Shown here in pieces: positions 10,595 to 55,194 of a stretch of DNA of 64,000 nt (position 1 is its first letter; each line of letters starts with the position of its first letter). Source of the DNA: Raja brachyura (lineage: Eukaryota); NCBI GenBank assembly GCA_963514005.1, contig OY740809.1, positions 20,894,001 to 20,958,000 of the forward strand, in the 5' to 3' direction. The notes beneath the pieces were generated by a model. That model did no database searches. It saw only the letters and a list, made by a program, of their open reading frames with translations, and was not told the DNA's origin. A program made the translations under genes and the position numbers.

Positions 10595-10651
10595 GTAGGA
10601 AATATCTCATCTACTTGATGTATCCACTGCAACAAGGAGATGCCTGAAATG

Positions 10652-10864
10652 TAGGATGGAACTGCAGATGCTGGTTTACACGGAAGATAGAACACAAAAT
10701 GTTGAGTAACTCAACTGGAGAAAAGGAATAGGTGATATTTTGGGTTGAGACCTTTCTTCAGATTCCAGAATCTTCAGTCTGAAGAAAGGACACGACCCAA
10801 AACGTCACCTATTCCTTTACTCCTGACCCGCTCAGTTACTGCAGCATTCTGTGTCTATCTTTGG
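10652..10864. mobile_element. Fold-back Penelope-derived repeat with degenerate hammerhead cores
   Basis: Inverted arms; flanking TGCCTGAA(A/G)TG duplication at 10641-10651 and 10865-10875. Confidence 0.75.
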
Positions 10865-11099
10865 TGCCTGAAGTGGCTGTTTAAAATAAAATGCCATATT
10901 TAAATAAAGCATGACCGAGAGATTACACAGTAATGTTTCTGTGTTGCTTATTTGTATTTCACCTTGCACTCATGTTTACATGCCTTCAGATCCATCCTTG
11001 CTGTTGCATATATCTTGCACAAAACTAAGAATGGTCCAGGAATGGTGAATCATGCACAGGAGGCATTCCCTTAATTTCAATGTATTTATTTCTGTTTAG

Positions 11100-11183
11100 G
11101 CTCTGGTTGCTGAAATAGAAAATAATCAAATCAAACTTGATGAATGCCAGAGTCTGTCTAAACAGTACTCTGCAGCTGTGAAG
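11100..11183 (+). CDS. MACF1: MACF1 exon (ALVAEIENNQIKLDECQSLSKQYSAAVK)
   Basis: tttag|, |gtaagc, 84 nt, phase 0 to 0. Confidence 0.92.
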
Positions 11184-11283
11184 GTAAGCCTTCACATTTA
11201 TTGGTTCAAATCTTTAAACAAAGTGAAGTGGTTTTCTTCTGAAAAGCAACAGGATTTAAAACTGCCTCATTTGACTTGCCTAG

Positions 11284-11391
11284 GATTACGAACTGCAGTT
11301 GATGACCTACAGAGCCTTTGTTGAATCTCACCAAAAGTCACCCGTAAAGCGCCGTCGAATGCATTCATCATCGGATGTCATAACCCAAGAG
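11284..11391 (+). CDS. MACF1: MACF1 exon ([36 protein letters not shown])
   Basis: cctag|, |gtgaga, 108 nt. Confidence 0.95.
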
Positions 11392-11509
11392 GTGAGAGAA
11401 GTTTGTTGAACATCACCACGGATCTTTTTTTGTTTCAGACACCTAAATTGTAAACTTGCGAGTTTTGAAGTTTTTGTCAATATTTAGTAGCGTCTTATCC
11501 TTTCTATAG

Positions 11510-11608
11510 TTCATGGATCTCAGAACACAATACACCGCACTGGTGACTCTAACAACTCAACATGTGAAGTACATCAGTGATGCTTTGAGGCGGCTGGAAG
11601 AAGAGGAG
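11510..11608 (+). CDS. MACF1: MACF1 exon ([33 protein letters not shown])
   Basis: ctatag|, |gtaagt, 99 nt. Confidence 0.95.
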
Positions 11609-11835
11609 GTAAGTGGGCTAAGAAATTAGGAAAGACTTTTGAAAAAGGATTTAAACAAACTTGGACACTAGTATATTTGAACTAGGCTAAAACCTGACAA
11701 TAAAGGTAATTCAAAAAAAAAAATTTGATTCCAAACAAATACATTGGAGGTGTGTGTAAGTCTCATTGTTTCTTAACTAGTCTGAGTCATAGAACTATGA
11801 ACATGGACATGGACAATGAAATGAATAGATCCTCT

Positions 11836-11945
11836 GGGGTTGCACAAAAAGCTGGAGAAACTCAGCGGGTGCAGCAGCATCTAAGGAGCGAAGGAGATAG
11901 GCGACGTTTCGGGTCGAGACCCTTCTTCAGACTCATTCAGATTCA
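11836..11945 (-). mobile_element. 110-bp Penelope-derived insertion with an intact minimal hammerhead ribozyme core
   Basis: Minus strand reads CTGAAGA-A-GGGTCTCGACCC-GAAACGTC; perfect 13-bp TSD GAATAGATCCTCT at 11823-11835 and 11946-11958. Confidence 0.75.
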
Positions 11946-12530
11946 GAATAGATCCTCTTTTGGGAGGGCAGGCGATTGATGGGTGAAGGGCCTCAACCAC
12001 AGCTCCCAAAGTAAGTGTCACATCTGATCTGCCGAATTGATACCCTGTTGCAGTTTATAAGACCATTACCAGAAAGGGGATATGATTCAGAAAATGCACA
12101 GATATTTCAAGTTCAGTGAGAACTTTAGAGAGTTTTGATTTGCTTTATAGATATTCAAAGCCATTCAATGACAACAAATATGCAACATTTGTATGACACT
12201 TTTATATCACTTGGAGTAAGGATTACAGCCCATTGCATTTTTCGATCCATTCTCTGGGATCTGCAAAATTACAAAATAGATGAAGTAGCACAGTGGCACA
12301 ATCAGAATGTAAATTGTGGAATTACAATCCAGATGTTACCACTTGGCCCAGGGTATCTAAACCACCTTGTTTAAAGGCTACCCACAAAGTTTCATCACCC
12401 TGCCCACACCCCAGAACCCTGGGATATTTCTCTGTCGAGCATGTATTCTGTTGCATTTAACAACTTGAACTGAGTATGTTTAATCATCCTTTTCAGCAAT
12501 GCATATTTTTCTTTATATTGCTGAGTTTAG

Positions 12531-12683
12531 AAAATTGTCGAGGAGGAGAAGCAGGAACATGTTGAAAAAATGAAGGAACTCTTAGGCTGGGTTTTGAACG
12601 CGGATCAGATCCGAAAAAATAAGAATGTTTTACCAGAAGCAGCGGGCCTGGAAACCATTGAGCAGTCATTCAGTGAGCAACAG
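12531..12683 (+). CDS. MACF1: MACF1 exon (KIVEEEKQEHVEKMKELLGWV...)
   Basis: tttag|, |gtacgc, 153 nt. Confidence 0.9.
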
Positions 12684-14644: not shown

Positions 14645-14733
14645 GTAATCACTGAAGAACTCAATGCCAAGAAAGATCATGTAGCAGAGGCAATCAAAAC
14701 GACACAGATATTTCTTGCCAAACATGGAAACAG
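14645..14733 (+). CDS. MACF1: MACF1 exon (VITEELNAKKDHVAEAIKTTQIFLAKHGN)
   Basis: tgtag|, |gttggt, phase 0 to 2. Confidence 0.92.
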
Positions 14734-17456
14734 GTTGGTGTTTTTTTTATTATGTAGTCATGTTAAATCATCAGTTGATACCCTGACAATACATTACTAA
14801 AATAACACAGCTGTGATTCGATAATATCTGTTTCCCTCTTAATTATATATTGGAAAATGGTATGGAAAAATATATGGAAAATGAGTGAGAATCAGTTGAA
14901 ATTCCTGTTGAGATCATGCTTTTACTTGAATGTGCATAATAATTCTTGTAATGGAATTTCTATTGTTTTCCTTGATTTCTCTGCCCAGTAAAATATGTTT
15001 TCAGCATTGGTGCCACTATGATAATCACCATTGATTTTGACAGCTCTATATTTGATGCCAGCGCCATAAGTAAGACCGCAGAATTATAGATGACCATTTC
15101 AATGGTGGCACATGTGACAGTCTCTTGTTTTCAAAATTGGCTCATTTAGACATGAACCGAAACACAGTCTGTGAAACGGCTTCATTACGGTCTGATGTCT
15201 GGTTATCATCATTTCATCAGTGGAAGAAAGCCAAACAATAACGTTTCCAATATTAACATCATTGGAGTAATCCCATTTACCATTTTACTCAATCATTCAA
15301 TTAGCGATGCGCATGCAGGAAACAGTAATCTATAGTTTGACCAGAAGAAACAAAAGTGAACGCATGCATTTTTTTGCACATGATTATCATTTGCATTATA
15401 AAATGGCATCTGCCTTTACAGAGGTTTTATCTACTTATTTAGAACATAAGGGAGTGCAGATGCTGGTTTACAAAGTGCTGGTGTAACTCAGCTGGTCTGG
15501 CAGCATCTCTGGACATGAACAGGCTTTGTTTCATCAATGGACCATTCTTGACTGATTGTAGTGAGGGGTCAAAGCTGGAAGAGAGGTGGAGGCAGCATAG
15601 AGTCAGGCACTTGGTAGCTGACAAATGGCTACGAGGTAAGGAAGCATGAACTGTGAAGCCAGTGGAGGGGTATAGGTAGAAGGGGATGGGGGACGCGATT
15701 ATAGGAGCACATCCAGGACCATTCACATCCAAGTCATTAATGTATACAGCAAACAGCAAGGGTCCCAGCACTAATATCTATGAAACATTGTTCTCTTAAT
15801 ATTAAAACTTACACTGGATCCAATTTGCACCTTGGCTTGTTTCTCATGGGCTGTACATTTTTGGACCAGCCTTCCATTTGAGACTTGGTCAAAGGCCTCA
15901 CTGACGTCCATGTAAACCACATCAACCACATTGTCCTTATATTTAGTTACTCTTTAAAATAAATCTAGTGAAATTATACAGGCAGGATCTCCCACCATCA
16001 AATTTGTGCTGATGATCCCAGATCTTTCTTTACCTATTTCGGACGGCGTCAGGCTGGGCAGCCTTACTCAACGGCGCCCCCTCAGTGTATAATCTACTAT
16101 TGAAATAGGTCAAAGGACAAAGACCATTTATTATGTGACAATAAATATCCTTTGTACTTTGACCTATTTCAAGAGTCGATTATTCCTCCTCAGGATATTT
16201 TCCAATAAATGATGACATTGTTTATGTGCCTAATTGGGTGCAGAATCTGCATATTAACCTTTTGCAAATTGTGCACAAGGACATCAGATCCCTCTGCATC
16301 TGAGCTGTGGGATCTCTCACTGAGTAGACAATGTGCTATTTTCTTTTAAAGGACATTAACATTTTCCCACATACTCGATATGCCAGATCTTTACCCACCC
16401 ACTCGCTTAATTCCCTTTGAAATGCAAGGGACCAGATGCTGACGTGCAAAATAAAGACACAGTACTGGAGTAACTCAGCGGATCAGGCAGCATGTCTGGC
16501 GCTGCGTGATCTGAGTTACTCCAGCACTTTGTGTCTTTCTTTAGCTTGTATTTATTTGTGTCTTCCTCACAACTTAGTTTTCTACCTGTTTTTGTCATTG
16601 GTGCATTCTGCATCCCTACGTTCAGTGCCTTCATTCACAGCATTTATATAAATACTTAAAACGTTGAGGCCCCAGCACCAATTCCTGTTCCAATCCATGC
16701 ACCTCATGCTTGCATTTTGCTAGACAGAAAAAGCCCCATTCATGCTTATCCTGTTTCTTTTCCGCTAACCAATATTCCACCATATGTTTAGTTTAGTTTA
16801 TTGTTATCACACCTACCAATGTACATTGAAAATCTTTTTGTTGCATGCTACCCAGACAAAGAAATTACTATACATGATTATGTCCAAAGTGTGCAGATAA
16901 ATGATAAAGGGGACAACTTTTAGTGCAAGACAAGTTGCCTGATAACAGTTGGGAGCAGTTGCCTGATATCTCCTATTCCATGAGCTTAGATTAACTGTGG
17001 TAACCTTTGAGGAAGGTACTTTACTTGAAAGAGCTCCAGTAAATTGGTCAAACATGATTCACTTTTCACAAAATCATGTTGACTATAGCTTATCTTCTTG
17101 ATATACTCAACATCCTGTTATGAAGATTTAATAAAAAGCTTCTTATGTTTGCTTTGAAACATGTGTTAAGTTAAATGGTTTGTCATTTCTGCTTTTGGTT
17201 TCCATCCTTTAAAAAAAAAAAATCAGATTGCATTTATCTTTTCCAATCTGCTCCAAATCAATTTTTGAAAATTAACATCGACACATCAGTTACTCCAGCA
17301 CTTTGTGCCCAGCTGTGGAATTAACCTGTTAAAGAATTGAGACAGTTGACTCATGATTTGAATCATTGGAAGAAAATCCTAGTCATAATATTTACGCAAA
17401 AGAACAAAGGAAAATGTGCTGATCATGTAAATTCTGTTCAACTATTTAATCAAATA

Positions 17457-18738
17457 CAGTGCCCTCCATAATGTTTGGGACAAAGACCCATCATTTATTT
17501 ATTTGCCTCTGTACTCCACAATTTGAGATTTGTAATATTAAAAAAAATCACATGTGGTTAAAGTGCACATTGTCAGATTTTAATAAAGGCTTTTTAATAA
17601 AAGATTTTTATACATTTTGGTTTCACCATATAGAAATTACAGCAATGTTTATACATAGTCCCCACATTTCAGGGCACCATAATGTTTGGGGCACAGCAAT
17701 GTCATGTAAATGAAAGTAGTCATGTTTAGTATTTTGTTGCATATCCTTTGCATGCAATGACTGCTTGAAGTCTGCGATTCATGGACATCACCAGTTGCTG
17801 GGTGTCTTCTCTGGTGATGCTCTTCCAGACATGTATTGCAACAATCTTTAGCTTATGCTTGTTTTGGGGGCTAGTCCCTTCTCTCCTCCATACTTTGCTC
17901 TTGCCATCACTCTGATATAAGTTAATCTTCATCTCATCTGTCCACAAGACCTTTTTCCAGAACTGTGGTTGCTCTATTAAGTACTTCTTGGCAAACTGTA
18001 ACCCGGCCATCCTATTTTTGCAGATAACTAATGGTTTGCATCTTGCAGTGTAGCCTCTTTATTTCTGTTTATGAAGTCTTCTACGGACAGTGGTCATTGA
18101 CAAATCCGCACCTGACTCCTGAAGAGTGTTTCTGATCTGTCGGACAGGTGTTTGGAAATGTTTGTATATTATAGAGAGAATTCTTCTGTCATCAGCTGTG
18201 GAGGTCTTCCTTGGCCTACCAGTCCCATTGTGATTAGTAAGCTCACCAGTGCTTTCTTTCTTCTGAACTAACTCTTTCCAAACAGTTGATTTTGGTAAGC
18301 CTAAGGTTCGGCTGATGTCTCTAACAGTTTTATTCTTGTTTCTTATTCTCACAATGGCATATTTGACTTTCATTGGCACAACGTTGGTCCTCATGTTGAA
18401 AAACAGCAATAAAAGTTTCCAAAGGTGATGGAAAGATTAGGTGTTGAGAGCTCTCTTATACCTGCATTAAGGAGGCAATTACACAAATCTGAGCAATTAC
18501 AAACCCTATGAAGCTGTGTCCCAAACATTATGATGCCCTGAAATGGGGGGACTATGTATAAACACAGCTGTCATTTCTACATGGTGAAACCAAAATGTAT
18601 AAAAATACCCTTTAATAAAATCTGACAATGTGCACTTTAACCACATGTGATTAATTCTATTACAAATCTCAAATTATGGAGTACAGAGGCAAATAAATAA
18701 ATAATGGGTCTTTGTCCCAAACATTATGGAGGGCACTG
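17457..18738 (-). mobile_element. Tc1/mariner IR/DR transposon with internally deleted transposase
   Basis: TA TSD (17455-56, 18739-40); TIRs of about 230 bp starting CAGTGCCCTCCATAATGTTTGGGACAAAG; HTH plus GRPRK, WKKVLWTDE and C-terminal IACKGYATKY. Confidence 0.95.
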
Positions 18739-18870
18739 TAGAATCTAAGAAAGAAATACATTTTTGAAAAATTCTGTTTTAATAGTTAAGAATCTGATTT
18801 CCTTTCACCTTTCTTTTCATTTCCCCTTGACCATCTTAATTTATAAATATTGAACTGTTTGGTTTCACAG

Positions 18871-19006: not shown

Positions 19007-19933
19007 GTACACTTTGGAGGACTAGGACATTGCCAGAAGTTAATATTTTCAATGTTTTTATCATATCAATGTTTTGACAGTTTGACCTGCATGAATCAAT
19101 GTATGAATGCAATTGTGAATGTATGGACATAAATTACACTGCATGGAATGTTTTACCTGTAATAGCACGAACTTCATTACTCACACATACATCAGACTAC
19201 TCATCACTTGAAGACAATGTTTTGTTTCTCAGCCAATTATCTCCAATTCAATCTGCTGCATATTGTGGTAAATTGTTTATGCTTTGCCTCGCCTAGGCGC
19301 ATGCACAAGTGTGTGCTTAATATATTGTGAGGATTTAAACAAGGCAATCACTAAGCTAATCTGACTTGGAATATAAATATTTATATTTCAAAACTCAGTG
19401 ATCAAATAGCCTTATTTGAGTAAATAAAGATGAAAGACAATTTTGCTATTTCAAGTCTTGGGGTGTTTTACATGGAACCAGATGCATTTGAAGTGTAAAT
19501 CATAAAACTGCAGATACTGGATATCTGAAATATAAGCACAGAATGCTGGCAGCATTCAGCATGTCAAGATGAGCCTGACCGGCTGATAGGTTCCAACATT
19601 TTCTGTTTATACATCAGTTTTCTCATGATCTAATTTATGTACAAAATGCTGAAAGAATCAACGTTAAATTGTATTAATTGTTTCCGTGATGGAAATTTTT
19701 CTGCTTTTTCTTTGATTTGTGCCCTGGAATCTTTTGCGTTCACCTGAGATGAGAGAATGGGATCCTAGTTTTATGGTTTAATCCAAATTTTTTGAGTAAT
19801 GCAGAGCATATCTTATAAATCACAGTGATGATCATTTCCACCCAATGACAAGATGATGCATTGCCTGAGAAACATATTCCGAATTTGCTGAGACCTCATG
19901 TTCATTGTATATTGCTTCATCTGCCCATGACTC

Positions 19934-22685: not shown

Positions 22686-23714
22686 ATTATCAGAAACCAA
22701 GATTATTTGTTCCACATTTGTTCCAAATGACATTCTTCCAATTATTTCTAAAAGGTGTGATTTCTTATAGCTTTAATATATTGCAATATGAGCAAAAATG
22801 TTTTTCAAAGTAGTCAGTTATGTTTTCAAATGCAATGAAAGGTGTCTATTCAAAAATAGCTTTGAATGGCAACAGTATAAATACAAGAAAACAAAATAAA
22901 TTTGAAGGATGCAGGAAAAATACTGGGCAGTGAGACAATTACATTTCTTTTGAAAAGAACTGGCTCAGGTTCAAAGAGCTGAATGACTACGGCCTGTTTG
23001 CCAGGTTATTTTGCGATCCTCTTTTATGTTAATAGTCACATTATGTATCTGGAGGTACACAATTATATCCATAATTTCTAAGTGTCCTACGCATACATAA
23101 ACAGTTAAAGGGATGAAATAGCACCAGGGTTAATTCGATGTTGTATCAGTTCAGGGAGGTCTGCACATAATGCCCCATTGACATGCATTGATGCACATTC
23201 ATTTCGTGCATGAGTCTGTTTTCAAGGCTGTATAAAAGCTGGCATGGAGCTATTCAACATCAGTTAATTAACTGGAGATTAGCGAGATGATGGTGTGAAT
23301 TTATTACTTTGCAGTGGAAATTTCATGCCAAATTCAAAACTGCAAGTGTAAAATTGATGCAAATGTAAAATTGACATGTAAATGTAAAAGTGATTGACAA
23401 TTGTAAACCAGTTAAAAACCAAATTCACGAATTACATCTTTTTTTTCTAAACTACAATTCTGAGGCCTATTTATTTATTTTGCCTCTCCATCCCCATATT
23501 TAGTAATTATCTATGTATAGATAATTACAGTATAAGCTTTTCGCTGTACATCTGTGTGTGTGACAATAATAAATCTTAAACCTATTCTGTTGAGAACAGT
23601 TCTGAAAAAAATCCTAATATTAGTAGAATTATCTGTTTATATTTTACAAGTATGTTTGCAGATTTATCAGTTGCTGTAAGTTCAGAGACTTAACTTGTGA
23701 TTTACATTTTCCAG

Positions 23715-26700
23715 GAGAATGAAACAATTGCAGGTGTGATTGACCTGGGAACAGTAGAAATCTTTTCAATTTTCCGTGCCATGCAGAAGGGTTTTATAGA
23801 CCAGGACACAGGCCTTGCCCTGCTTCAGATTCAAGTGATTAACTCTGGCCTCCTTATTCCTGAAACCTGTGAATACCTGACGGTGGAACAAGCTTTAGAA
23901 AGGGGTGCGATAGATAATCGAACAGCTAAATCCTTGAAAGAGTTGCAGGCTGCCGCACAGCTCTTGAAAAGCACCGATTTTAAAAGCAATAAACTTCTTC
24001 CTGTGGCTGCTGCTGTGGAAGAGAAGAAAATTGAAGAGAATGTGGGACTGAAGATTTTGGAGATCCAGCTTAACTGTGGCTTTGGAAAACTACCAACAGC
24101 TGAAGCTGTGGATCTAGAGAAAGCTTTCCAACTGGGCCTGATCAGTGCATCCCTCCACTCCAAGATGAAGGCTAGACAAAGAGTACAGAAAGGTTTGATT
24201 GATCCCAACACAGGAGAAAAGCTTGGACTTTCAGAACTGGTACAGCGATGCATTGTAGATAAAGAAAGTGGATTAACTTTATTTCCAATAAAGCAACTTG
24301 CCGGTGGGATGATATGTCTGAAATCTGGAAAGAAGGTCAGCTTATTCCGTGCTATCCAAGAAGGGTTGATCGACCAACAGGTGATGGTCAGACTTTTAGA
24401 GACCCAATTGTTTGCAGGTGGCATCGTAGACCCGAGAACAGGGCACCGACTAACAGTGGATGAAGCAGTGAGACATAATCTCATCGATCATGATATAGCT
24501 TGTTCCATATTAATGCGTCAAATCCAGACGGGCGGTATTATCGATCCTGTCTCAGCTCAGCGATTGAGTCTGGATGAGGCTGTACAACGGGATTTGATGA
24601 CTCCGGGAAGCGCATTGGTTGTGCTGGAGTCTCAGTTGTCCTTTAAGGGACTGCTGTGGCCAAAGTCTGGTGAAGTCCTTCCTGTGGCCAGTGCAGTGCA
24701 ACAGGGTCTTGTCTCCGTTGATCTTGCACATGCAATCCTGAAGAAGAGACCCACCATATCAGAACTTTATTGCCCCGAAACCACTGAGGTACTGTCTTGG
24801 GAAGAATCAATTGAGCAAGGAATTTTAGACGACAAAGCTGCTGAAGTATTGAAGTCAATTCGTATTCCAGATACGATGCCAAATATGAAAGAACCTGGTT
24901 TTCCAATTGTAGACAGATTGAACTGGAGGACGGCTGGTGGAATGCTGCCAAATTCCAGTCTGGAATCCCTGGTTGCTGACAACAATGCACCAGTCTCACA
25001 TAGTCAAATGGTAGAAGAAAGGCTATTGTCTTTCTTAATGGCACAAAGTTATATGAATGTGCATAATGGTAACAGATTGCTTTTGATTGATGCCAAGTTG
25101 AATGACATCACTAAAGAATTCATAAAAACAAGAGTAAACACTGCAGTTTTGAAGAGTAAAAAAACGTTGGAAGAATGCAATAAAGAATATGATACCACCA
25201 CAAATTATGCTGAATTATACCATCCAGAGAAGCTAACATTAAAACAAAATGACAGCTCTAAAGCAAGTGATAAGATAGAAGCTGGTTATGGAATGTATGA
25301 AAGACAATCGGATGGATGGATTAAGGAAATTAGAAACAGTGAGGAAATGCCTTTGAAGAAGAATGTGGATTTTCCAGCCTCTGAAGAAAAAACATATAAG
25401 ACTGAAATCTGTTGCAAGGATATTGTGACTAATGAACAACAAGCAGTTCAAAAGGAACTGAACACAACGGAATATGAAAATGGTCAAAAAGAAAAATTGA
25501 AAATACTGCGCGGCAAATCTAAATTTGAAAGTGTAATTAGTAGAGAATCAAATGTTGCTGAAAAATCTACAAAAGGATCTCAGAAAGCAAATATGCCTAG
25601 CATAGTTACTGAAACTTCTCATTATACAATAAGTGATGTCGAAATTCAATACACTTCACAGGATCAAGTCGACAATAAATGCTTTGAGGAAGAAGCTATC
25701 GTTTTGCAGACAGTTGAAGCATTCCATCTGCCAGACTCTCATATTACTTCAACCAGTTCAGCTGTAGGTTTTCCAACATCAGCAGTTCACGGGTCATTGA
25801 AAGAGACTCGGTGTGATGTTATACTAAATAATGGAGCCAAAGCTGTCGTAAGTGTTAGCAGCACTGGACCAACATCGTGTGATATTAAAAATGGAATTGG
25901 CCAAGGCAATGTGAATGGGTCCTTAAAAGGGAAAAATGCAGAATTGCATAGTGGTGAACAAAATCCTGAACTAAATGATCCTGCTAAATATTTCCAATGC
26001 CAGAAATTGCCAATAATGTCAAAGCCAAGAGAAGACTATTTGGATGATGAATCCACTTTAAATGTTCTGATTGACCAGCTTCAAAATGGTGGTGTCGTTG
26101 ATGAACAGACAGGCCAGAGACTAGCACTGAATGAAGCAGTAACCAAGGGAGTGCTTCCAAGCCACACTGCCCTCAAACTAGTGGAAAAACTGGCCATCTT
26201 TGGTGGTTTCTTTGATCCACAGACCTGCGAAACTGTGACGGTGGCTGAGGCAGTAGATGAGGGTCTGGTGAATGAACAGATGATTCGGAAGATCTTGAAC
26301 TCTGAGAAAGTTATCTGTGGGGTCATCTCTCCAGGTTGCACTTCCGTGCGTTCAGTCAAGGAGGCAGCTGAAGTAGGGCTTCTGGATCAAGAAACTGCAG
26401 CAAGAGTCCTGGAGGGACAAGTCATCTCTGGTGGGATCATCGACTTAAAACGAGGCAAACAGTTATCAGTGACTCTAGCATCAAAAATGGGCTTAGTGAA
26501 TAATGTCCATCTGGATAATTTGATCAAGCTAGAAAAGGCCACAAAGGGAAGAGAATCGGATGAAAACACAAAACTACGCATGATTTCTTTACAAATGGAA
26601 ATGAATGGCATAGTGGACCCACAAACAAAAGAACGCATAACAGCTGTTGAAGCAAGAAAGAGGGGAATCATTGATAAAGAAGCCATGCTTAACATTTTGA

Positions 26701-28844: not shown

Positions 28845-30769
28845 GTAAGCTTATTGGATCATTCTTCTTTAAACATTAGAATTATTTTTATATTTCTGTC
28901 TTTTCACATCCTTTGATTGCTTTGACCCAATTGAGAGGACGGAGGATTTCCTTGAATGCTGTTCTGTACCAGTCTCTGCAGGTATACAGCAGTGGTCTGG
29001 TACAACTTTCCCCTTTTGAAAGCCTGCTTCCAAACTTGATGTTGAGCATTCTTGTAAATGTTGTTCAGTCAAGTGGACAGGTGATGGAAAAAGTCAATTG
29101 ATGGGATAACTGACTGCTCCAAGGTCTTTAATTACGATTTAATGACCTGCTGCAGTGTTGCATTTCCTTAACCCATGCATTTGTTTCAAATATTTAGGAA
29201 ATAATTAGGAAATACTGGTATCCCAAGAACAAAATTTAAATTGATCATCAATGTAGTATTGAGAATGGAATGAAAGCATTAATGTTTAATTTTCAAGGTA
29301 TTGGAAATAAACACTAACAAAGACATCTGAAATGAGATCTCTATCCCATGAATAAAGATGAACATTATCTTTACTATTGGCCTTGAAAAGTGACATTTTG
29401 TAAATCACTTTTAACTGGTTGAAAATGCTTACTTAATTTTGGGAAACTGTTACTCTAATCTGCACAGGCAGAATTCAGTTAAAACGGAAATCCAAGAAAA
29501 GGCCACATTTTGGTGGGTTTTTTCACCTTCTCACTTGCAGTCTTGTATTTAAGATGACCCAATTGAGTGTTGCTTTTTACTGATAAATCAGTAGCATTAC
29601 AAGTGAAATAGCCATTAGAGACTGACGTGAGACTCAGTATGTGATGAACCACAGTTGGACATGCTTGTGGGGGGGTAACTTTGATTCTTCTAACAAATTC
29701 TGCATCAAGACAGCTGTTTGATCTGTTCTATATTCAAAATTGAGCAAAGGTTACTCTGAATTATATCATCTGTTGTTTACTGCATATCATTTTACAGTCT
29801 AAAACCATGTTATCTCCAGAGATTAGGTAGTTGGAAAGCAAATAGATTGCTGGGGAATGATTTGGTTCAGGTTGGAGGATAGAATTGAAGAAAAAAGAAA
29901 TACAAATTAATGTAAGTGTATTTTAGACTTTGCGAATCTCCAATGTTATTTTAATAGCTCAAACAACAACTTCAAAGAGCCTACACAGGCAAGGTTATCT
30001 GAATGGTAGCCTCCTGTGCTATAAGATTCTCTAATCAACATTTTACTCCCTTCTGGACATATCTCTTGGAGTCTGATTAAGGTCTATGTGACCATGCAAA
30101 TCGTCATAACTATTTTCTGAGGTTTGCAGAAGGCTTTGTACTATTTCACTTGTTATTCCACACAGCCATCGTGCTGAATTTGTGCCAGATCCTCCCTTTC
30201 TTCCAACTGCTCTTTGTGCAGATACTCTTATCTGTTTCCTCGCTGCTTCGTATAATGCAAGTAAAATCTTTTCGAAATAGAAATTACTTAAGTAACTTTG
30301 TTATAACAACCCAGTGAAAGATTAAACAGCAGTGAGGCTGAAATTTGGCATTTTCGCATTTTCTACATTTACCACAACTGAATAAAATGTTATTAAAGTA
30401 AAAGATCTGATTGCATTGATTCAGTGTATAACATTAATCACATTTTGATGGAATACCAAGGAAAATTTCAATTTCTTGTTAGGGAAAGTTGTTACATGCC
30501 CTTCCTATGAATGCTGAAAAGTGAAATCTATATTTTAAGTCGGCTACAATGTACTATCGTACATATAAAAGATGATGTTCTTTATCCCCCCCCCCAAGCA
30601 GGATGACTTAATTAAAACAGTCTTTCACAGAGTTGGGCTTGAATTTGGTGTCAGATATGAGATCTGTTATCATTCCAAAGCTGGCTTAAAAAAAATTGAA
30701 GTTCTTACAATATAATTTGTTTATTGAGGCAAAAAAACTCATCATGAGCTGTATTTAGTGGGTGCAAGA

Positions 30770-30955
30770 TATTGCAGATGTTGGTTTACAAAAGAAAACA
30801 CAAAGTGTTAGAGAAACTCAGGAAGTCAGGCAGCATCTCTGGAGAAGATTGATAGGTGATGTTTTGGGCCGGGACCCTTCTTCATCCATCTAAATAAGGG
30901 TCCTGACCGTAGTCACCTATCCATGGTCTCCAGAGATACTGCCTGACCCAGTGAG
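30770..30955. mobile_element. Fold-back Penelope-derived repeat
   Basis: Inverted arms GTCAGGCAGCATCTCTGGAGA / TCTCCAGAGATACTGCCTGAC. Confidence 0.7.
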
Positions 30956-32639: not shown

Positions 32640-33098
32640 ATTGTTTTTCAATAGTCACGGTGAGGCAGCGACCGGACAGCAATGGAGGCCAAAACTCCCA
32701 CAATGCAAAGGGAGGGAGAAAGTGGCTGACGACGACCAGTTGCCGTGGCAGTGCGCATGTGCAGGGCCACACATGCGCACAACCACGGCCGATGATGCGC
32801 TTGGCAGCCGGCCGTGCCGAGCGGAGACCCGAGCGCAGAGAGCACAGGGCTAGAGACGAGCGCAAGAGCCGAGCGCTAGCGCAGAGAGCTAGCGCCGAGT
32901 GCAGAGAGCTAGCGCCGAGAGCAGAGAGCTAGCGCAGAGAGCTAGCGCCGAGAGCAGAGAGCTAGCGCAGAGAGCTAGCGCCGAGACTCGGACACGGATG
33001 GCGGGCGGGTGTCCCGGTTGCTTGGCATGGCTTTTAGGTTGCCCGGCGGGACTGTAGGTTGCCATTGGCACCCGGGCAACCTCTAATTTCGAGCCCTG
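32640..33098. mobile_element. One end of a GC-rich hAT-like DNA element nested in the DIRS
   Basis: Terminus CAGGGCTCGAAATT on the minus strand at 33098, with repeated GGTTGCC subterminal motifs; abuts the truncated RT; left boundary uncertain. Confidence 0.5.
32875..32986. repeat. Minisatellite of 20-bp (GCAGAGAGCTAGCGCCGAGA) and 13-bp (GCAGAGAGCTAGC) units
   Basis: Directly visible. Confidence 0.9.
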
Positions 33099-35234: not shown

Positions 35235-35297
35235 GTTAGTCCATCATGCTTAATAGTTATGATTGGTATTTATTTATCAGAACTCAATTCTGCTTTG

Positions 35298-35528
35298 TAG
35301 GAACAGGAAACTGCAGATGCTGGTTTACTAAAGAAAAACACAAAGTGCTGGAGTAACTCAGCACGTCAGACAGCATCTCTAGAGACCGTGGATAGCTAAT
35401 GTTTTGGGTCAGATCTCTTCTTCAGTCACTTCTGAAGAAGGTTCCCAACGTGAAACGTCACCTATCCACATTCTCCAGGAATGCTGCCTGATCCACTGAG
35501 TTACTCCAGCACTTTGTGTCTTTCCTTG
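35298..35528. mobile_element. Fold-back Penelope-derived repeat; sense-strand hammerhead core at 35432-35459
   Basis: Inverted arms; CTGAAGA..GAAACGTC; TSD AATTCTG(C/G)TTTG at 35286-35297 and 35529-35540. Confidence 0.75.
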
Positions 35529-35676
35529 AATTCTGGTTTGGACTTTTTCCTCAAATTTTGCTTAGTTTTTTGATGGTTAAACTGTGCAGTGCATTCTATT
35601 TATTTGTTTTGACATCTGATTTTTATAATTTTTGAAAATGCTGGAGTCTTTCACACTGTCTTCACACTGATTTTAG

Positions 35677-40177: not shown

Positions 40178-40628
40178 GTTTGGACCAGCCACCAATTAGA
40201 CGTAAAATACAATAGTTTTGAGCCATAGAAAATATTTCTAAAGCAAAATGTCAGGTGTGATATAATGCATTATCTGACAATAGGTAAAAGTGAGAACCTA
40301 GTTTTTATGAATATTAAGATATGCAAGTAATTGCAATCAAGTGCAAACTGTTGAAAAAGTAAAAACGGACATTGTAGCTTTTAAGCCACTTGCTGAAAAG
40401 TTGCTTTACTGTCAAAGTCTTTACGCAGTGAATATACATAAATAAAACTGTAATCCATTATCCAATTTGGAAATCGCGCATCTTTGGCATCTAGCTGGAA
40501 CTTGCAGTAGCACCAGTTCCTGAGGCCCCATGCCACTTGCAGCTCCCGGATGGTTGTGCTCCTCTCCTTGCAATGAGGCCCCAGTTATCTTGCTGGCACT
40601 CCCGTCCCTGCACTTTCCGACCACTTGA

Positions 40629-40794
40629 GAGAAGAAATGGGTGACATTTCGGGTCGAGACCCTTCTTCTAAAGATGAGTCTTGATCCAAAATGTCACCCA
40701 TTCCTTCTATCCAGAGATGCTGCCTGTCCCGCTGAGTTACTCCAGCATTTTGTGTCTGTTTTCTGTGTAAACCAGTATTTGCAGCTCTTTCCTA
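40629..40794. mobile_element. Fold-back Penelope-derived repeat
   Basis: 18-bp TSD CACTTTCCGA(C/G)CACTTGA at 40611-40628 and 40795-40812. Confidence 0.75.
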
Positions 40795-42214
40795 CACTTT
40801 CCGAGCACTTGATGGACTCTGTTTCCAGCTTCCAGGTCTGCGCACTGGGAAGCGGGTTCCCCCTCTCCTTTGCCACTCGCCAGGAGCGGCTTTCCATGCA
40901 CCTTTGACAGGGGTCCTGGAGATAGATTTGTATAATAATTTAATTAAATTAGAAATAAAGGAACTTGGCTGTTTGAAAGAAAATGTGTTGATCTGTATTC
41001 AACTGATATAAACGTTGGTTGGCAGTGCGCTTGCTGATTTTAGCACAGTTTAATATGAACTGCGCAAAACAGCTGACATACCAAGTACATTTAAGAGATT
41101 CCATGTAATTTCCGTCCATGGTATGAACGCACATCAATGGTCCAACTTACGCTCTGTTTGGGATCTTCGTAAAGCTGCTCCAAGAATCTTTTCTCCTTTA
41201 ATCTAATGCCAGTCAGTAGCCTCAGCCATGTGTGTATTGTGTGTGTGTAAGTGTGGTGTCCGAAATTACTGTGGATTATTTCTCTGTCTTGTTCAGTGCA
41301 ATGCTTTCAGTAACCCTCTAACCAATGTTCCTTGAGTCAATCTTGTAATCTGTTTTGCCTTGCTTTTTCCAGATACTTTTGTTCCGTTAACCGCCACGGC
41401 TCACATAATGAAGATAATGCTTTGCAGTGGATCTGAAAATGGTCATTGAAGTGTTAACTGTGGTTTTTAACCATGAGACCACATGCTAATAGTTCTTGTC
41501 ATTGTCGTTCTATAACAGCTGATTCTTCACTGCTTCTATAATGTATTTCCGTGAAATCTCCACACAGTGGCTTCCCTGTATATTTGTGACACATCTTGCT
41601 CAATTGTACTAATTCATAATGTGATATCTGTAGTCCATCTAAAGGCTGGAGATTAGGACTATTTGCTTGTGACTGCTGTTTAATTTCAAGCAGCTCTTTG
41701 AAAATTGCTCAGACAAATGTTCACAGAATTCTGAGTGTGTAATGTAAGCATTTTAACTGCATATGGCAGCGCATTCTAACATCACCCATCAATTTTCTTT
41801 CATCTGCCATGAAATCATGTGCATTAAAATTTAATCAGCCAGTTTGAATCCATCTAGTTTTATAGATCTCAGATTATTATCTCTCAAGCTTAGCTTTCTA
41901 AATCTCATTCAGAACTTAAATATTTCAAATCAATTACTAAATCTAAAGTTATACTATTGTGGGCCTCATACATGTTCAGATGATTTGAAGGCAAAGTGCA
42001 CAACTACATGTGCAGACAATTGTTTTTGGGTTGAGTTGAATCAAGTAAAATTTAAGTTTTATTGGCTTATGAAAAAAAAACTGCATGGATCTATTGTGTC
42101 CACCCAGCCAGAGATGATCTATAGACATCATTAAGTTGTATTTGAAAATGCCAGTTATGAGAATTAGCAGCACATAAATGGAAAGAAGGAATGTACATTC
42201 TAGTTTTGTTGCAG

Positions 42215-43145: not shown

Positions 43146-44389
43146 TGAATGGGAGCAGCTCCATCGAAATACATTGCAAGACTTATTGCACTTATTGTTT
43201 ACTAATTACATAATATGACTCCGGGAGATACCTTAACTGAGAGTGGATCAGTAGCTAAGTAAATACTTAATCTAAATGTGCTTCAACTTTGAACAGCAGC
43301 TGCACATTACAATCTCCAGCTAGTACAGTAGGGGAACAGCCCGCCCTGGATTCCAGCTGGGTGAGAAATTGGAAGGATGAGCAGAGCGTTAAGACCAAAT
43401 GCAATAATATTTTGGAGATGGGATTAGGTGACATGGTTGATCCGGAAACTGGTTAAACTGCTGCCAGATGCATGGAAGTTAACTGGCGTTGGTACATTTA
43501 AGGGAAAGCTGTGTTAAATACTTGAGGAAGCTAGAGAATGGTTTCATAGACAGAGGAAGTTTATGAAGAGCGTGAGATTGAGGTATAAAAGTAGAAGTGT
43601 GTTTATGATGTATCACGAAGAAGCTGCAGTTCAGGAAATAGGCGATCATCTGTTTTTATCAGTATTATTTACGATGGAAAGCACATAAAAACATCTTTTT
43701 TTTTAGCTTTTCTCCAACTGTAAAATAATTCCATATGCCCCTTGTAATTAATGCACGACATTCTAAAACTTTAGATGAAGCAGAGTTAATTAATTTTCCA
43801 ACACTGTTTTTTGTTGTTTTTGTGCATAAAGCCTATATTTGGTCTTTTCGCTAAATCATTTTTACGAGACGAACCATCATTTTTTGAACTCCGCATCACT
43901 GAAATTTAATATCACTTCTTAAAATATCGTTTAGATCTCCAGTTTGATGGTTTAAATTAAATTCAGTATCGTTACTAATGTCATTGAGATATTTAGCAGA
44001 AGTATAGCTGATATCATAAAAAATATTTTCCACTTCTCAACTCAGGATAGTAGCTGGCTTCCATCAAAACATAACAGCAGATGGGAAATATGGTACGGTT
44101 TTCTGAATTTCCTCATCAATCCGCTCCGTATGTTAAGAAAAAAACCAGCAGTTGGTTGACCATGAACTGCTTTTGTCATGGACATAAATATCAGTTACTT
44201 CTCAACCGCGCAGTAACAAGAAGTACAGTTGAGAAGTGGATGACTTTAGTAATTTTACCAGGCTGCAACCTCAGTGAGTCATCAACCGAAATAGAATGGG
44301 CAAGTTTACTTGGGTAAAACCCTCTATAATTGTGGGGTTCATCTTCTGCTTAAAATAAAGTGTGCCTAACACAAGGCTACAGGAATTTG

Positions 44390-44544
44390 TAGAAATAAGG
44401 AACTGCAGATGCTGGCTTATGGGGGAAAAAAAGACACAAAGGTCTGGAATATCTCAGCAGGTCAGGCAGCATCTCTGGAGAACATGGATAGACGATGTTT
44501 CAGGTTGAGAGCCTTCTTCAGACTGATTGTGGGGGGGGGGGGGG
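44390..44544 (-). mobile_element. Penelope-derived half unit with hammerhead-like core and poly-G
   Basis: 15-bp TSD GGCTACAGGAATTTG at 44375-44389 and 44545-44559. Confidence 0.75.
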
Positions 44545-44667
44545 GGCTACAGGAATTTGATATGATTTTGGCATGAAGTACATGTAGGTATATTGTCAGT
44601 GTTGTTTGGTGTGCCGTCTTTCACAATAAGGCTATTCAATTATTTTTTCTGTTATGTTCCTTCTTAG

Positions 44668-47900: not shown

Positions 47901-47931
47901 CAAATTGAAACCAAATCCCCAAGATATTATC

Positions 47932-48978: not shown

Positions 48979-49087
48979 GAGTAATGTCTAAGTGATTTGG
49001 GACATTTTCTGACTAATTTCCTAAGCTCCGAAGCATTCCGTGTAACCAGTTTTAATATTTAATAACCATCTTAATTTCTTTTATTAG

Positions 49088-49404: not shown

Positions 49405-49742
49405 GTATGACTTCTTTCATTTTCTTAATATAATGGCATTTGAAGTCTTGCATTGTATTTGAAATTTTCAATTATGCCTAAGCTCAGTGCATTAATATGC
49501 ATGGAGCAAGACTAACAGAAATATGTACGTTTTAGTCATGTAAGAGGACGTGTGATAACTTGTGACTGTTCAGCTAAGTAATACTGGTAATGACCAGTCA
49601 CCATTCTCAGGTGATCAAAGCATTATGCATCTCCCTTACTGGCCTAACACACTTTGATGAAACAGAGACCATTGCAAGGATTTATCATGAAATAATACGT
49701 GGTCTAATTTCTTTTAGAGAAAACAGTAATAATGTTCCTGAT

Positions 49743-50110
49743 GGACACATAAAGCTGGAGTCATTCAGCGGGTCAGGCATCGTCTCTGGGGGGAAAAAGA
49801 ATATGTGAAGTTTTGGGCCAAGTCCCTTCTTCAGACTGAGAGTCAGGGGAAAGGGAAACAAGATATAAACGGTGATATAGTGAAATACAGAACAGAAAGG
49901 TATGCAAAAGGTAACGATCAAGGACATGTGGAGCCCACAATAGTCCATTGTTGGTTGTGGGCTTAGTGATAATGAGTTATACAGACAATGAAACTCAACT
50001 AGATGTCAATGAAACTAGTACAACGACTTAGGTGGGGGAGGGGGGGAGAGAGAGGGGATGAAAGGCTAACTTGAGGTTTGGGAAATCAATATTCATACTG
50101 CTGGGTTGTA
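49743..50110 (-). mobile_element. Penelope-like element 3' fragment (ORF C-terminus, 3' UTR, hammerhead-bearing terminal repeat)
   Basis: Minus strand 50110-50071 encodes QPSSMNIDFPNL, resembling the PLE ORF end, and is contiguous with the CTGAAGA repeat unit. Confidence 0.65.
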
Positions 50111-50145
50111 TTCAGCGGTTTATTGGAATGAATATAATTCCTAAA

Positions 50146-50348
50146 AGATAGACACGACAAGCTAGAGAAACTCAGCAGGACAGGCAGCATCTCTGGAGAG
50201 AAGGAAGGGGTGACATTTCGTGACGAGACCCTTCTTCAGACCCGACCCGAAACATCACCCGTTCCTTTTCAGAAATGCTGCCTGTCCCCCTGAGTTACTC
50301 CAGCTTTTTGTGTCTCTCTTCGGTTTAAACCAGCATTCCTTCTTACAC
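50146..50348. mobile_element. Fold-back Penelope-derived repeat
   Basis: TSD AATATAATT(C/G)CTAAA at 50131-50145 and 50349-50363. Confidence 0.72.
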
Positions 50349-50642
50349 AATATAATTGCTAAAGCCAGCGCAGATCAAATGGTTCTGAATAATTATAATT
50401 TAATCCTTTCCTTCTAACTTTGGTGTGCATTGAATGTTGCCTTTTCATCTATGGTTCTCAAAAAAATGATGCAGGCAGCATCCAATTCACAATGGTCTTT
50501 AACTAACATTAGTTTTAGCAATGGACCAGTAACATATTGCGTGAACCATTTTGGAGAGGTTGAACACTCGATACTAGGCAGCATTTCACCAAAATTGAGG
50601 GTTTTAAAAATCCACATAATTATTTATTTGTTTGGTTTACAG

Positions 50643-50819
50643 TGCAATAAACTTGGCACTCACCTCGCCAATATGTTGGAGAAATATCAACATTTCCATG
50701 ACATTGCCAGTGAGCTGAATTCATGGCTAGAGAACTCGGAGGCAACTGGAGATAGGCTTCTGTTGGAAACTATTTCTTCTGATCCAGAAAGCTTACAGAA
50801 ACACCTTGCAGAAATCAAG
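50643..50819 (+). CDS. MACF1: MACF1 spectrin-repeat exon (CNKLGTHLANMLEKYQHFHD...)
   Basis: ttacag|, |gtaatc, 177 nt. Confidence 0.92.
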
Positions 50820-51017
50820 GTAATCAAAGTTGTTTTTCTATAAATTGCTGCATAATATTACTTTTTCTGAATTACAAGTAGAAATGTGAATGTCTTGAAA
50901 TAATGTTAAAATGCACCTCAAACAATGGGAATTGAGGCCAGATGGAAGGTTTTTAAGCTTGATATTTGGAATAGTATGGTGGGCACGCTAAATTTAGTTC
51001 CATTTTTGTTTCAATGA

Positions 51018-52445
51018 AGAAACAAGGAACTGCAGATGCTGGTTTACAAAAAATGACACAAAGTGCTGGATTACTCAGTGGATCAGGCAGCATCTCTGGA
51101 ACTGAAGAGTCTGAAGAAGGGTTCTGACCCAAAAAATCACCTAACCATGTTCTTCAGAGATGCTGCCTGGCCTGCTGAGTTACTGCAACACTTTATCTTT
51201 TTTTTTGTTTTTTTGGAAGCCTGACAATGAACCTACAGTAATCTGCTTCTGGGAAGCTGAACTGCTCTACAATTACAATGTGCATATTTTTAATCTTGTT
51301 TTCATGAGCTTCCCAGTCTTTGGGTTACCTGCATGGACATTCAACTGAGACTCAGTGATTGGGGACAATGGTAGCTGAATTCTGGATAACCTCAAATTTA
51401 CAGTAGTAGAACAAGGGTGGCCAACAAAGAGGTGATGGACTAAACAGGTCCAGATATAATAAAGGATTGTAGCAGAACATGAGGTAAGGTGTCAGAAAGA
51501 TATGATTTTGGACTCAATTTGGGGTCAGATTTGTTTGCAAGATTACAAAAAGTTTAGTTTAATCCAAATAAATATGGAGTTAGTAGTTATGCACATGGAA
51601 TTTGCAACAGAAAAACAAACCGGTGGCTACAAATTTCAAAATATTGAAGAGTATTGCTGCTCGTTCAGTCAGCGAGACAGCCTGACCATTGAGTTACAGT
51701 AAATGAGTTGGGGTTTGACGATGGTGAAGTTAAAACTGTGTGCTGTCAGTGTCAATATAGAAATTAGTGTTACGTACTTGGCCGGGGTATTTGAGGGCAT
51801 CACCCACTTGATTAAGGCACAAGAGACTATAGGTGCTGGAAACTGGAGCTAAAAAAGAGCTGATGGAGGAACCCAGCCGGTCAGGAAGGAAATTTTCAGA
51901 CAGCATTTTGGATCTAGACCCTTCATCTGGATGACAAGAGTAGAGGCGAGATGGTCAGTATAAAAATTCTGACTAACCTGCCAATCAACCCCATCTGTGT
52001 AGGAAAGAACTGTAGATACTGGTTTAAATTGAAGATAGACACAAAATGCTGGTTTGAACTCAACGAGACAAGCAGCATCTCCAGAGAAAAGGAATGGGTG
52101 CCGTTTCGGGTTGAGACCTTTCTACAGATGATCAGTCTGAAGGAGGGTCTTGACCGGAAACGTCACCCATTCCTTCCCTCCAGAGATGCTGCCTGTCCCA
52201 CCAAAAACAGAAGGAGAACTGCTGGAGGAACTCAGTATCTATGGAGGGAAATGGAGAGTCAGCATTTTGTGTCTATTTTTGAATCAACCCCATCTCATCT
52301 GTATCCACCTAGCTCTTGTCCTACCCTCTCTGTATATTGCCTTTCTCTCCTCTACTCTTTTATGGAGGGTGTAGACACAAAACGCGACTCTCCATTTCCC
52401 TCCATAGATACTGAGTTCCTCCAGCAGTTCTCCTTCTGTTTTTGG
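51018..52445. mobile_element. Cluster of Penelope-derived fold-back repeats (about 51018-51200, 51828-51930, 51996-52200, 52205-52445)
   Basis: Same GGAACTGCAGATGCTGG / GCAGCATCTC / CTGAAG motifs; boundaries approximate. Confidence 0.65.
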
Positions 52446-53458
52446 TACATATTTAATGAATGTGAGAGATCCAGGATAGTAGATGGGAATTTTTGGAGTA
52501 AAAGAACAGGAGCAGTAAACAGTTACTACATGAACTTAACCTGTTGCAGTCAAATATTTGTACTTGGTGCTGAAGAGGCACATGACGACTTTGGCATTAT
52601 TGTGCAAATCTTGCTGTGTTTTAAATCTAAGGTTCAAGTTTTGCATGCGATGCAAACTCTATAATAATGTTTTTAAATATTTTCTTCCATCTTGGTATTG
52701 TCGGCAATTATTGGCTATTGATATTTGGATTACTTTGTTGTTTATAGGGCCAGTCAGAGACTGGAGCCTCATGAAGACTAGCTAAGGACAGTGAACTCAA
52801 TAACAACAGGGAATGCTCATGCATCAAATATGTTAAATACTTACAAACATTTATGATGATCGATGTAGATTTTTGATCTGGTGACATGTTAAAGCTGTGA
52901 AGTTAGGCAAAAATGCTGGAGAAGCTCAGTGGGAGAGGCAGCATCTATGGAGCGAAGGGACAAAAATGCTGGAGAAACTGATACTTTTTATTTCAACATG
53001 TTTGCTGCCATGTCAAATGAGCAGAAAATGGTAAAAAATATACTGGGAAAGGGTATATTGTTTCTTTTATTTGCGTCATATTTTAATAAACCTTCTAAGA
53101 ATCGCCTTGTGTGGTTACCTGTTCACAATCAACCTGAGATCATTTGTCGGAGTGGCAACTCGTAAGTAAATCTGCAAAAAGATGGTGGACGTGAAAACTG
53201 ACCCAGCTCTCGGTCTTCCAATATCCTGTGGCAACTAGGTCCTTGCTAATTCAAGCAACACTCTCTCCCAAAGCAGGCTGTCGCGTCGGGGATTACTGTG
53301 GTGTTTTTACAGCATCTTTATCCCAATCCGTATATCTCTGTAATGCACTTGGGCAATATCAAAATCCAACAAGCCATCGGTTGAGCTAAGTGGTCCTTTT
53401 ACAGTAAGAAGGATTCATTTAAATATGAATGAGTTATTGTATAATTTTGATTTTACAG

Positions 53459-53582
53459 GTGCTTCAGGGAGACCTAGCTGAACATGAAGTCAGCGTAGAA
53501 AAGTTACAAAAAGCAGCAAACTCCTTGATGTCCACGGATGATGACCTTGTTCCAAACCAAGATCAAATTCAACTAACGACAG
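53459..53582 (+). CDS. MACF1: MACF1 exon (VLQGDLAEHEVSVEKLQKAANSL...)
   Basis: ttacag|, |gtacca, phase 0 to 1. Confidence 0.92.
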
Positions 53583-54905
53583 GTACCATTTCAGTACTAG
53601 CTGTTTTCATCAAAATGTGGTTCTGTAATTACAACAAATAGGAAATATCTCAGTAAATCATACATCTTCAATATATATAAATAATATTGGTGATCCACCA
53701 ATTTCTCTATCTTTCTAAAAAAATTAATTGTAATTTATAATTCAGGCTTCAAATCTTGAGTCATCTTCACATAGTAGATCATAAATCTACTATCATTTGA
53801 TTACAGCAATGAAACCTTTCAGGTAAATAGAAATATCATCTACAAATGCCGGTGACTGGAATGTTTTAAATATAAATGTAAGTTTTCAAAGTTGAATAAT
53901 ACTTGAGAAATGGCCTTTCTTCACTAAATTGATGGTAGTGATTCAGACATCCCAAAAGTATTGTAAAATGTGTATTGTATGATGTTTCTGCCAAAGTGGC
54001 ACATAGTTTATGTGTTAGGTCATATGAAACTGTTGCATGAGCAGTAACCTATGGTTTAGAATTGTTGGGTTAATCTTTCCTTATTTGGTGCACTGAAAAT
54101 AAAAATAGCACCAATTGGGAATTCCTGAAGGGAATCAAAGCGATACACTGACATTAAGTTATTGAAGCAACTAATTAGGCTCTAGTTGTGCCTTGACTGA
54201 AGCTGTTCATTCAATTCTAAGGAAACTATTTGTAAATCTGACAATTTACAAACAATAGAAAAAAATATAAATATACTGGGGATCTGAAACAAATCAAGAA
54301 AACAGACTGGGAATATAGAATTCAGTCAGGAGATGAAATGTATGAGGGAAACATTGACGTTTTAATGTTGCTTTTCTTTTTCCAGATGCTCTATTAAACT
54401 ATTCTACTTTCTACATTTTTTTTGTTTTCTAAATACCAAGTTGGCTAATATTTCTGCTAATTTTCTGACAAATCCATTTATCTTGTGTATCAGTTCTACA
54501 AATGTATCATGGGTAAAGTAAGTGGACAAATGGTTTAATGTTATGCAACGGGAATGTGGCGACTGTGAACATCTGGCAGTGATGCAGTCAGGGAAGTATT
54601 TGTGACTAACGGCACAAAGGCCCACAATGAGGGGTGATTTTTCATGCTCTGCGGGAAGTGCAGCGCAGAGACACGCAACCGAGCACCCCAACAGTGCAGA
54701 GTGGGCCGCTGCGACCAGGCTTCTGCTGAGAACTTTCGCAGCTGTTATCAGAGTCGGCCCCGCTGAGCAGAATACTCTTTATGTTTTTTGCTGCCCCACT
54801 TCCCTCCACTCCACCTGCTCCCCTTCTTGATGGGGAAAAAAGGGTTTAAGTCAAAAGGGTCTTATAACAAAATATTGCACAGAACTGAATAGTCTAATTG
54901 TATTC

Positions 54906-55017
54906 GACAGAAGATAGACACAAAAAGCTGGAGTAACTCAGCGGGTCAGTAGCATCTCGGGAGAAAAGGAATGGGTGACGTTTCGGGTTGAGACCCTTCT
55001 TCAGACTGAGAGTCAGG
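54906..55017 (-). mobile_element. Penelope-derived half unit with near-intact hammerhead core
   Basis: Minus strand CTGAAGAAGGGTCTCAACCCGAAACGTC; TSD AATTGTATTC at 54896-54905 and 55018-55027. Confidence 0.75.
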
Positions 55018-55194
55018 AATTGTATTCCTCTGTTTCTCTCTTCTCCTCTTGTTTTGCATATTCCTCCTCCTTTTCCCTGTTCCTCAATTTACTCTTGTCG
55101 CACATTACAATCGCACCCCGTTCCGTTTTTTCATTCCCTACTCTCCTTGTTGCTCCCACATTTCCCTCTTAACTTTCCTCCTTACAACATAGAA

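Follow-up and report, generated by a model that had tools for sequence, protein, structure and literature searches.

Short hammerhead-bearing repeats in introns of Raja brachyura are probably stubs of Penelope-like insertions

Does a hammerhead ribozyme release the short repeats that carry its motif, or are such repeats the leftover ends of a larger retroelement? The question is raised by a 64,000-nucleotide stretch of the Raja brachyura genome (assembly GCA_963514005.1, contig OY740809.1, positions 20,894,001 to 20,958,000 of the forward strand; hereafter the window, with positions counted from its first letter). An earlier note on this DNA described at least a dozen intronic copies of a short unit and proposed that they form a retrozyme-like family, processed by its own ribozyme and mobilised by Penelope enzymes. 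Our analysis makes it quite probable that the units are the 5'-truncated terminal-repeat ends of endonuclease-bearing Penelope-like retrotransposons (Penelope-like elements, PLEs), with the hammerhead motif a probable passenger that is not used to cut out the unit.

We searched both strands with a profile built from nine window copies and then refined the calls by alignment. The unit was found at 18 loci between 10036 and 55017, bearing out the dozen or more copies noted before. Together, their 28 arms take up 3,269 bp (5.1% of the window), with one locus per 3.6 kb, and units span 60-380 bases. Every copy sits between coding exons, i.e. in introns, of a predicted spectraplakin gene on the plus strand. 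Solo copies make up eight of the 18 loci, and head-to-head pairs the other ten. This pairing is absent from the earlier note, although four of the seven repeat-bounded loci it cited (10641, 35286, 40611 and 50131) are such pairs. The sequence upstream of the core is of at least three types, which indicates that several subfamilies are mixed.

Positions within the unit were counted from the hammerhead C3 as 0, along a reference that stops at +130. The core occupies 0 to +27 and is followed by about 70 nt and an optional tail. There are two preferred 3' ends roughly 30 nt apart, at about +97 and +128; 13 of the 28 arms end at +87 to +99, another 13 at +119 to +130, and two are shorter. The tail is found on exactly one arm in all ten pairs (p = 0.001 against a coin toss). 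The 5' ends of the solo copies (-281, about -190, -26, -13, -3, +33, +49 and +67) are scattered and fit a flat hazard (p = 0.32), but those of paired arms are clustered, with 12/20 lying at -6 to +2. Even in the least favourable count of one arm per locus, 6/18 loci fall in this 9-nt window, which was picked post hoc (p = 1.4e-4). Over all arms the cluster holds 13/28, of which 12 are paired, leaving only one of the eight solo copies there (Fisher p = 0.025). It coincides with a self-complementary sequence, TCAG-T-CTGA, that overlaps the CUGA of the catalytic core. All ten pair junctions are nevertheless different: there is no filler at 40611, there are short fillers at about 30764, 35286 and 10641, and the joins at 50131 and about 51019 are asymmetric. 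Arms within one pair are more alike than arms across pairs (permutation p = 0.008), as is predicted if pairs are assembled at insertion.

Target site duplications (TSDs) of 10-18 bp bound 8 of the 18 loci, five of the ten pairs among them. All seven direct repeats claimed earlier are real, each starting at the cited base, and an eighth, at 51983 and 52282, encloses a pair that itself lies within an older one. In a random-placement control (n = 1358), a repeat as good as the weakest arose in 3.9% of placements, one as good as the next two in 1.2%, and one as good as the best four in none. The TSDs thus uphold the view that the copies are independent insertions; at the other 10 loci no convincing direct repeat was found. 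Inverted repeats at ten loci, half of them with TSDs, might also suggest miniature inverted-repeat transposable elements (MITEs), the palindromic units then being non-autonomous DNA transposons mobilised whole by way of their inverted arms. However, the length of the TSDs is variable, the two ends are not equivalent (only one arm bears a tail), the junction differs at each locus, and solo arms bear TSDs too, all of which makes a MITE origin extremely unlikely.

The same architecture is familiar from PLEs, for which we draw here and below on those parts of the cited papers and supplements that were available. Insertions of endonuclease-bearing PLEs combine 5' truncation, an adjoining inverted truncated copy, a one-sided tail of 30-40 bp, a TSD, a palindromic inverted junction and solo pseudo-long terminal repeats (pLTRs) (PMC3846280, PMC8557442). 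The units share 5' truncation, a head-to-head inverted copy, a tail at one end, a TSD, a junction palindrome and solo copies with the canonical elements (Penelope/Poseidon, Neptune, Nematis), but differ in that both arms are stubs of only 40-200 nt, in their density and in that no open reading frame (ORF) was recovered. Four of five testable features of endonuclease-bearing PLEs are present: the one-sided tail, the adjoining inverted 5'-truncated copy, variable 5' truncation and the TSD. Of the fifth, a single ORF combining a telomerase-like reverse transcriptase with a GIY-YIG endonuclease, the window yielded only a candidate C-terminus of 13 residues. Since no parent protein was found, membership of the Penelope group, as proposed in the earlier note, is supported by architecture and motif.

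How such stubs might arise is suggested by PAc, a Poseidon-type element of Anolis carolinensis, in which both target strands are cut and extended and two internal reverse transcription start sites define the tail (PMC11167929). PAc and the units have in common two 3' ends located 3' of the hammerhead, and a hammerhead retained uncut in insertions; the PAc ORF starts inside the hammerhead region (PMC11167929), whereas a coding role of the unit here could not be shown. By analogy, the element's endonuclease would nick both target strands, and its reverse transcriptase would start at two internal RNA sites just 3' of the hammerhead, on uncleaved RNA. A single priming would give a solo stub, while two primings, one per site and on opposite strands, or one priming followed by fold-back, would give a head-to-head pair with one tail. 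The present junctions suggest that the short cDNA ends would meet preferentially at TCAG-T-CTGA, with small fillers or deletions left at the join. After insertion, copies would decay neutrally, largely by CpG loss. The enzymology of this scheme is inferred from other species.

Is the hammerhead itself needed? The motif fits a minimal type I hammerhead, as the earlier note had recognised, with CUGANGA, one extra base, helix II with a G10.1-C11.1 pair, GAAA, NUH and a palindromic ACGU in place of helix III. Helix II has 4 bp and helix I 2 bp; no helix III is present. The best-preserved 28-mer quoted earlier has a single exact occurrence, at 11903-11930 (minus strand). Most copies are decayed: core letters are intact in 5/14 aligned arms, with the full helix II as well in only 2/14 (11930 and 55004), GAAA has become AAAA in 7/14 cores, the G10.1-C11.1 pair is G-C or G-U in 10/14, and the palindromic ACGT persists in 5/14, the remainder showing mostly CpG-type changes. 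We found no compensatory stem changes (0/84 cells), and 75% of cells are paired against 77% in shuffles, although 14 decayed copies give low power; this is what neutral decay would give. The scan with hammerhead models suggested in the earlier note returned no hammerhead family from Rfam, either in the window or with the best copy, and the Rfam miRNA matches were set aside as chance hairpins.

These observations bear directly on the retrozyme model, in which dimeric hammerhead cleavage would free unit RNAs that are circularised and reverse transcribed in trans by a Penelope protein. The palindromic core in five aligned arms speaks for it, as do TSDs of more than 4 bp, which animal retrozymes also have (PMC7229834), and the descent of retrozymes from Penelope terminal repeats together with the monomers that they leave (bioRxiv 10.64898/2026.07.22.740005). 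However, not one of the 28 arms has its start at the predicted cleavage site (+28) or up to 3 nt away, and the core is kept at the 5' end of the unit, from which cleavage would remove it. There are also no head-to-tail repeats in the window, three short same-strand gaps (197-406 nt) being nested or adjacent separate insertions. Paired cores lie on opposite strands, so that no dimer can form in cis within one transcript; helix I falls short of the canonical 6-bp type I, and stem covariation is lacking. We therefore regard the retrozyme model, and with it the 'ribozyme-processed' label, as largely refuted and very improbable. The lack of ends at the cleavage site is in line with PAc, whose hammerhead requires protein for cleavage and need not cleave for insertion in vitro (PMC11167929), and minimal motifs in the literature show no activity as monomers and weak activity as dimers (PMC4209133). 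By the earlier note's own criteria, its reading would fail if stem II covariation and cleavage were absent, or if breakpoints were random as in ordinary truncated Penelope insertions; breakpoints are indeed scattered in the solo copies and covariation is absent, but the junctions of paired arms are clustered.

To gauge abundance, four public runs were compared with 49660-50420, and 119,414, 133,114, 122,946 and 14,402 contigs were placed, so that matches exceed 100,000 contigs per run in three organisms. The high copy number proposed earlier is borne out, and is in fact very high. In all four runs, heterogeneous loose ends occur at both 3' ends (places 50315 and 50336) and a few bases 5' of the core. 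A contig from organism E spans flank and the 49740 arm together, placing this insertion before the split from E.

The region compared includes the longest copy, whose upstream end at 50071-50110 could be the end of the parent ORF. The earlier note had joined a unit to this end; the link holds, but the partner is the arm at 49740-49833, reached across some 230 nt rich in pyrimidines, and not the neighbouring unit at 50131. The candidate ORF end has 13 residues, and the majority letters of other copies place an in-frame stop right after it. It is presumably Penelope-like, but no search tied the 13 residues to a Penelope protein. Upstream segments of the long copy, including 50076-50101, are multi-copy, with a summed depth of 5.9e4 in run X1 against about 10 on the flank (summed depth does not equal copy number and varies 100-fold with local divergence), and single contigs run from the 50076-50101 segment into the untranslated region. 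Two open frames of 42-43 codons, 35296-35421 (minus) and 40668-40796 (plus), run through two arms in the same frame in the tail. They might mark where the parent ORF begins; protein searches gave nothing.

Several points weigh against our assignment to PLEs. The 5' and 3' ends were called partly by eye, in copies that are 70-95% like the reference, and the TSDs are longer than the 8-10 bp of Adineta examples in the available text. A search for the parent ORF with the 13-residue peptide gave 0 matches, the translated arm found none against longer proteins, and there was no Pfam match, though these short queries make weak searches. Reverse transcriptase or GIY-YIG sequence was not recovered, and scanning the window for motifs revealed no further remnant. 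An RNA hairpin upstream of the core was considered as a site where synthesis stalls and rejected, as the fold is no better than shuffles (z = -0.07), and twin priming and fold-back are not separated by the present data. Finally, summed contig depth on the unit reaches 1.2e7 in run X1, about two orders above the candidate ORF end, a drop that is also predicted by a different model.

In that model, the terminal repeat contains a promoter from which transcription begins at TCAGT, immediately 5' of the hammerhead, and nearby internal reverse transcription starts produce copies of 100-135 nt; such stubs could be re-transcribed and moved in trans, like short interspersed elements (SINEs). Penelope promoters with initiator-like motifs sit in the pseudo-LTR, TCAGTCT presumably matches YYANWYY, the initiator consensus, depth in the public runs is far greater on the unit than on upstream parts, and nearly half of the arms end at -6 to +2. 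However, the arms at this site are almost all paired, with a single solo copy, and six arms read through it. The window has one initiator pattern for every 86 nt, and in D. virilis a 75-nt intron lies downstream of the start site and ends right against the hammerhead, at the 5' side of helix I (PMC4209133). A SINE-like family would be expected to have a fixed 5' end or a shared junction, neither of which was seen. This short-template model is therefore unlikely, and there is no need to invoke a distinct non-autonomous family with fixed ends, given scattered solo breakpoints, ten different junctions and the mixture of upstream types.

We also considered the 5' cluster as a splice acceptor, since a pyrimidine tract and CAG precede the core, but rejected this reading because the fillers contain no shared upstream exon. 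In the longest copy, a pyrimidine tract ending in CAG lies directly 5' of the hammerhead (49833-49862, minus strand) and resembles a splice acceptor.

Table 1. Loci of the unit in the window. Ends and junctions are given relative to C3 of the hammerhead (0).
Coordinates	Strand	Description	TSD (mismatches)
10036..10112	-	Solo arm, 5' end about +49, without hammerhead core, with tail	
10641..10875		Head-to-head pair 10652-10864; junction -1/-5 plus short filler; tail on left arm	11 bp, 10641-10651 / 10865-10875 (1)
11823..11958	-	Solo arm 11836-11945; intact core 11903-11930; without tail	13 bp (0)
15440..15740	-	Longer solo copy, second subfamily; about 190 nt pyrimidine-rich upstream (5' end approximate); decayed core; tail	
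16419..16542		Head-to-head pair joined 3' of hammerhead (+43/+51); left-arm tail	not found
17288..17318	+	Short fragment, +67 to about +90	
19506..19606		Old head-to-head pair (+57/+47); left-arm tail	not found
30765..30955		Head-to-head pair; junction +1/-1; left-arm tail	not found
35286..35540		Head-to-head pair 35298-35528; junction 0/-1; left-arm tail	12 bp (1)
40611..40812		Head-to-head pair 40629-40794; junction +2/0; short left arm; right-arm tail	18 bp (1)
44375..44559	-	Solo arm 44390-44544; tail; C-run at 5' end	15 bp (0)
49740..50115	-	Longest copy: candidate ORF end 50071-50110, about 230 nt untranslated region, decayed hammerhead (core start 49833); without tail	
50131..50363		Head-to-head pair 50146-50348; junction -2/+14; right-arm tail	15 bp (1)
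51018..51201		Head-to-head pair; junction +45/-3; left-arm tail	convincing TSD not found
51819..52446		Older head-to-head pair, third subfamily; arms to about -55 and about -80; split by nested element 51983..52295	
51983..52295		Nested head-to-head pair 51997-52281; junction -5/-5; left-arm tail	14 bp, 51983-51996 / 52282-52295
52898..52960	-	Solo arm from +33, without tail	
54896..55027	-	Solo arm 54906-55017; intact core; 13 nt upstream identical to 49740 copy; without tail	10 bp (0)

At the nested locus, 52200-52260 is an exact 61-nt inverted copy of 52386-52446, the end of the older element, and takes the place of part of the nested pair's right arm. It may reflect templated repair, conversion or an assembly error. 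The segment 52185-52273 is a local inverted copy and not an arm, and is left out of the count of 28.

How do the units compare with hammerheads already described? The minimal motifs of metazoan PLEs have in common with them CUGANGA, an unpaired base before helix II, G10.1-C11.1, GAAA and a palindromic 15.2-16.2 without helix III, and are likewise scattered across genomes as singles and opposite-strand pairs (PMC4209133). Helices differ in length, with 7-8 bp in helix II and 4-5 bp in helix I of Schistosoma; D. virilis, like the units, has a helix I of 2 bp (PMC4209133). The copy density here seems far above the 4,000-9,000 motifs of coelacanth and Xenopus, a figure that covers intact motifs only (PMC4209133). 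Animal non-LTR retrozymes are also short and non-coding, with a type I hammerhead, Penelope terminal-repeat ancestry and a TSD above 4 bp, but they form head-to-tail arrays with canonical hammerheads and circular RNAs, whereas the units are solo or head-to-head and carry minimal, mostly decayed motifs (PMC7229834, bioRxiv 10.64898/2026.07.22.740005). The units are not non-LTR retrozymes as defined in the available parts of these two sources.

Two supplement files of PMC4209133 contained no mention of shark or skate in our search, and term searches of the PMC8557442 and PMC11167929 supplements, as far as these were available, returned nothing relevant. Our literature search found no account of this unit family in cartilaginous fishes, but its scope did not extend to Repbase, Dfam or most subscription journals, and an earlier description is quite possible. 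One chondrichthyan is among the species of the retrozyme preprint (bioRxiv 10.64898/2026.07.22.740005). Motif scans of viral, metagenome and prokaryote collections gave 0 matches each.

The window has 40% GC and a single assembly gap of 140 N (63754-63893). The assignment of the host gene rests on its repeats: a giant exon at 23694-28916, a 5.2-kb open frame, encodes 11 plectin repeats, and spectrin repeats are encoded before and after it. We take this to be a dystonin/MACF1-like isoform. A second dispersed repeat, with 13 matches to one 21-nt motif (3679, 5750, 22663, 31944, 36040, 38131, 39376, 42451, 47140, 47960, 48684, 57621 and 62103), is probably a SINE, and presumably V-SINE-like. Other repeats include a Tc1/mariner-type remnant at 17455-18740, with inverted repeats of 83-94 nt at 93-98% and a weak match to a transposase helix-turn-helix (HTH), and a remnant of a CR1/L2-type long interspersed element (LINE) at 59292-61491 (minus strand) with an RVT_1 match. 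At 32839-33003, units of 13 and 20 nt are mixed in a GC-rich tandem array, which adjoins an unannotated frame of 193 aa (33550-34131, minus strand), possibly a DIRS or LTR remnant.

The origin of Penelope inverted repeats and one-sided tails is called unresolved in the available parts of PMC3846280 and PMC8557442. Most likely our finding is mostly ordinary, adding one more lineage to a described pattern, with the clustering of pair junctions at a palindrome as the extra. Its value lies in scale, given the share of the window occupied and the number of matching contigs, and the junction cluster and very high density are the parts that merit a genome-wide count. A genome-wide junction table could test twin priming against fold-back. 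Dense intronic inverted repeats could, hypothetically, also form double-stranded pre-mRNA. A bolder reading, which we put forward tentatively and consider rather doubtful, is that Penelope enzymes here make a dedicated ultra-short product, in more than 100,000 copies, with its 5' limit set by the conserved TCAG..CTGA palindrome as an RNA start or a site of cDNA-cDNA annealing. If this were true, the stubs would amount to a SINE-like class that renews itself, and would form a record of genome size able to settle how the inverted repeats and tails of Penelope form.

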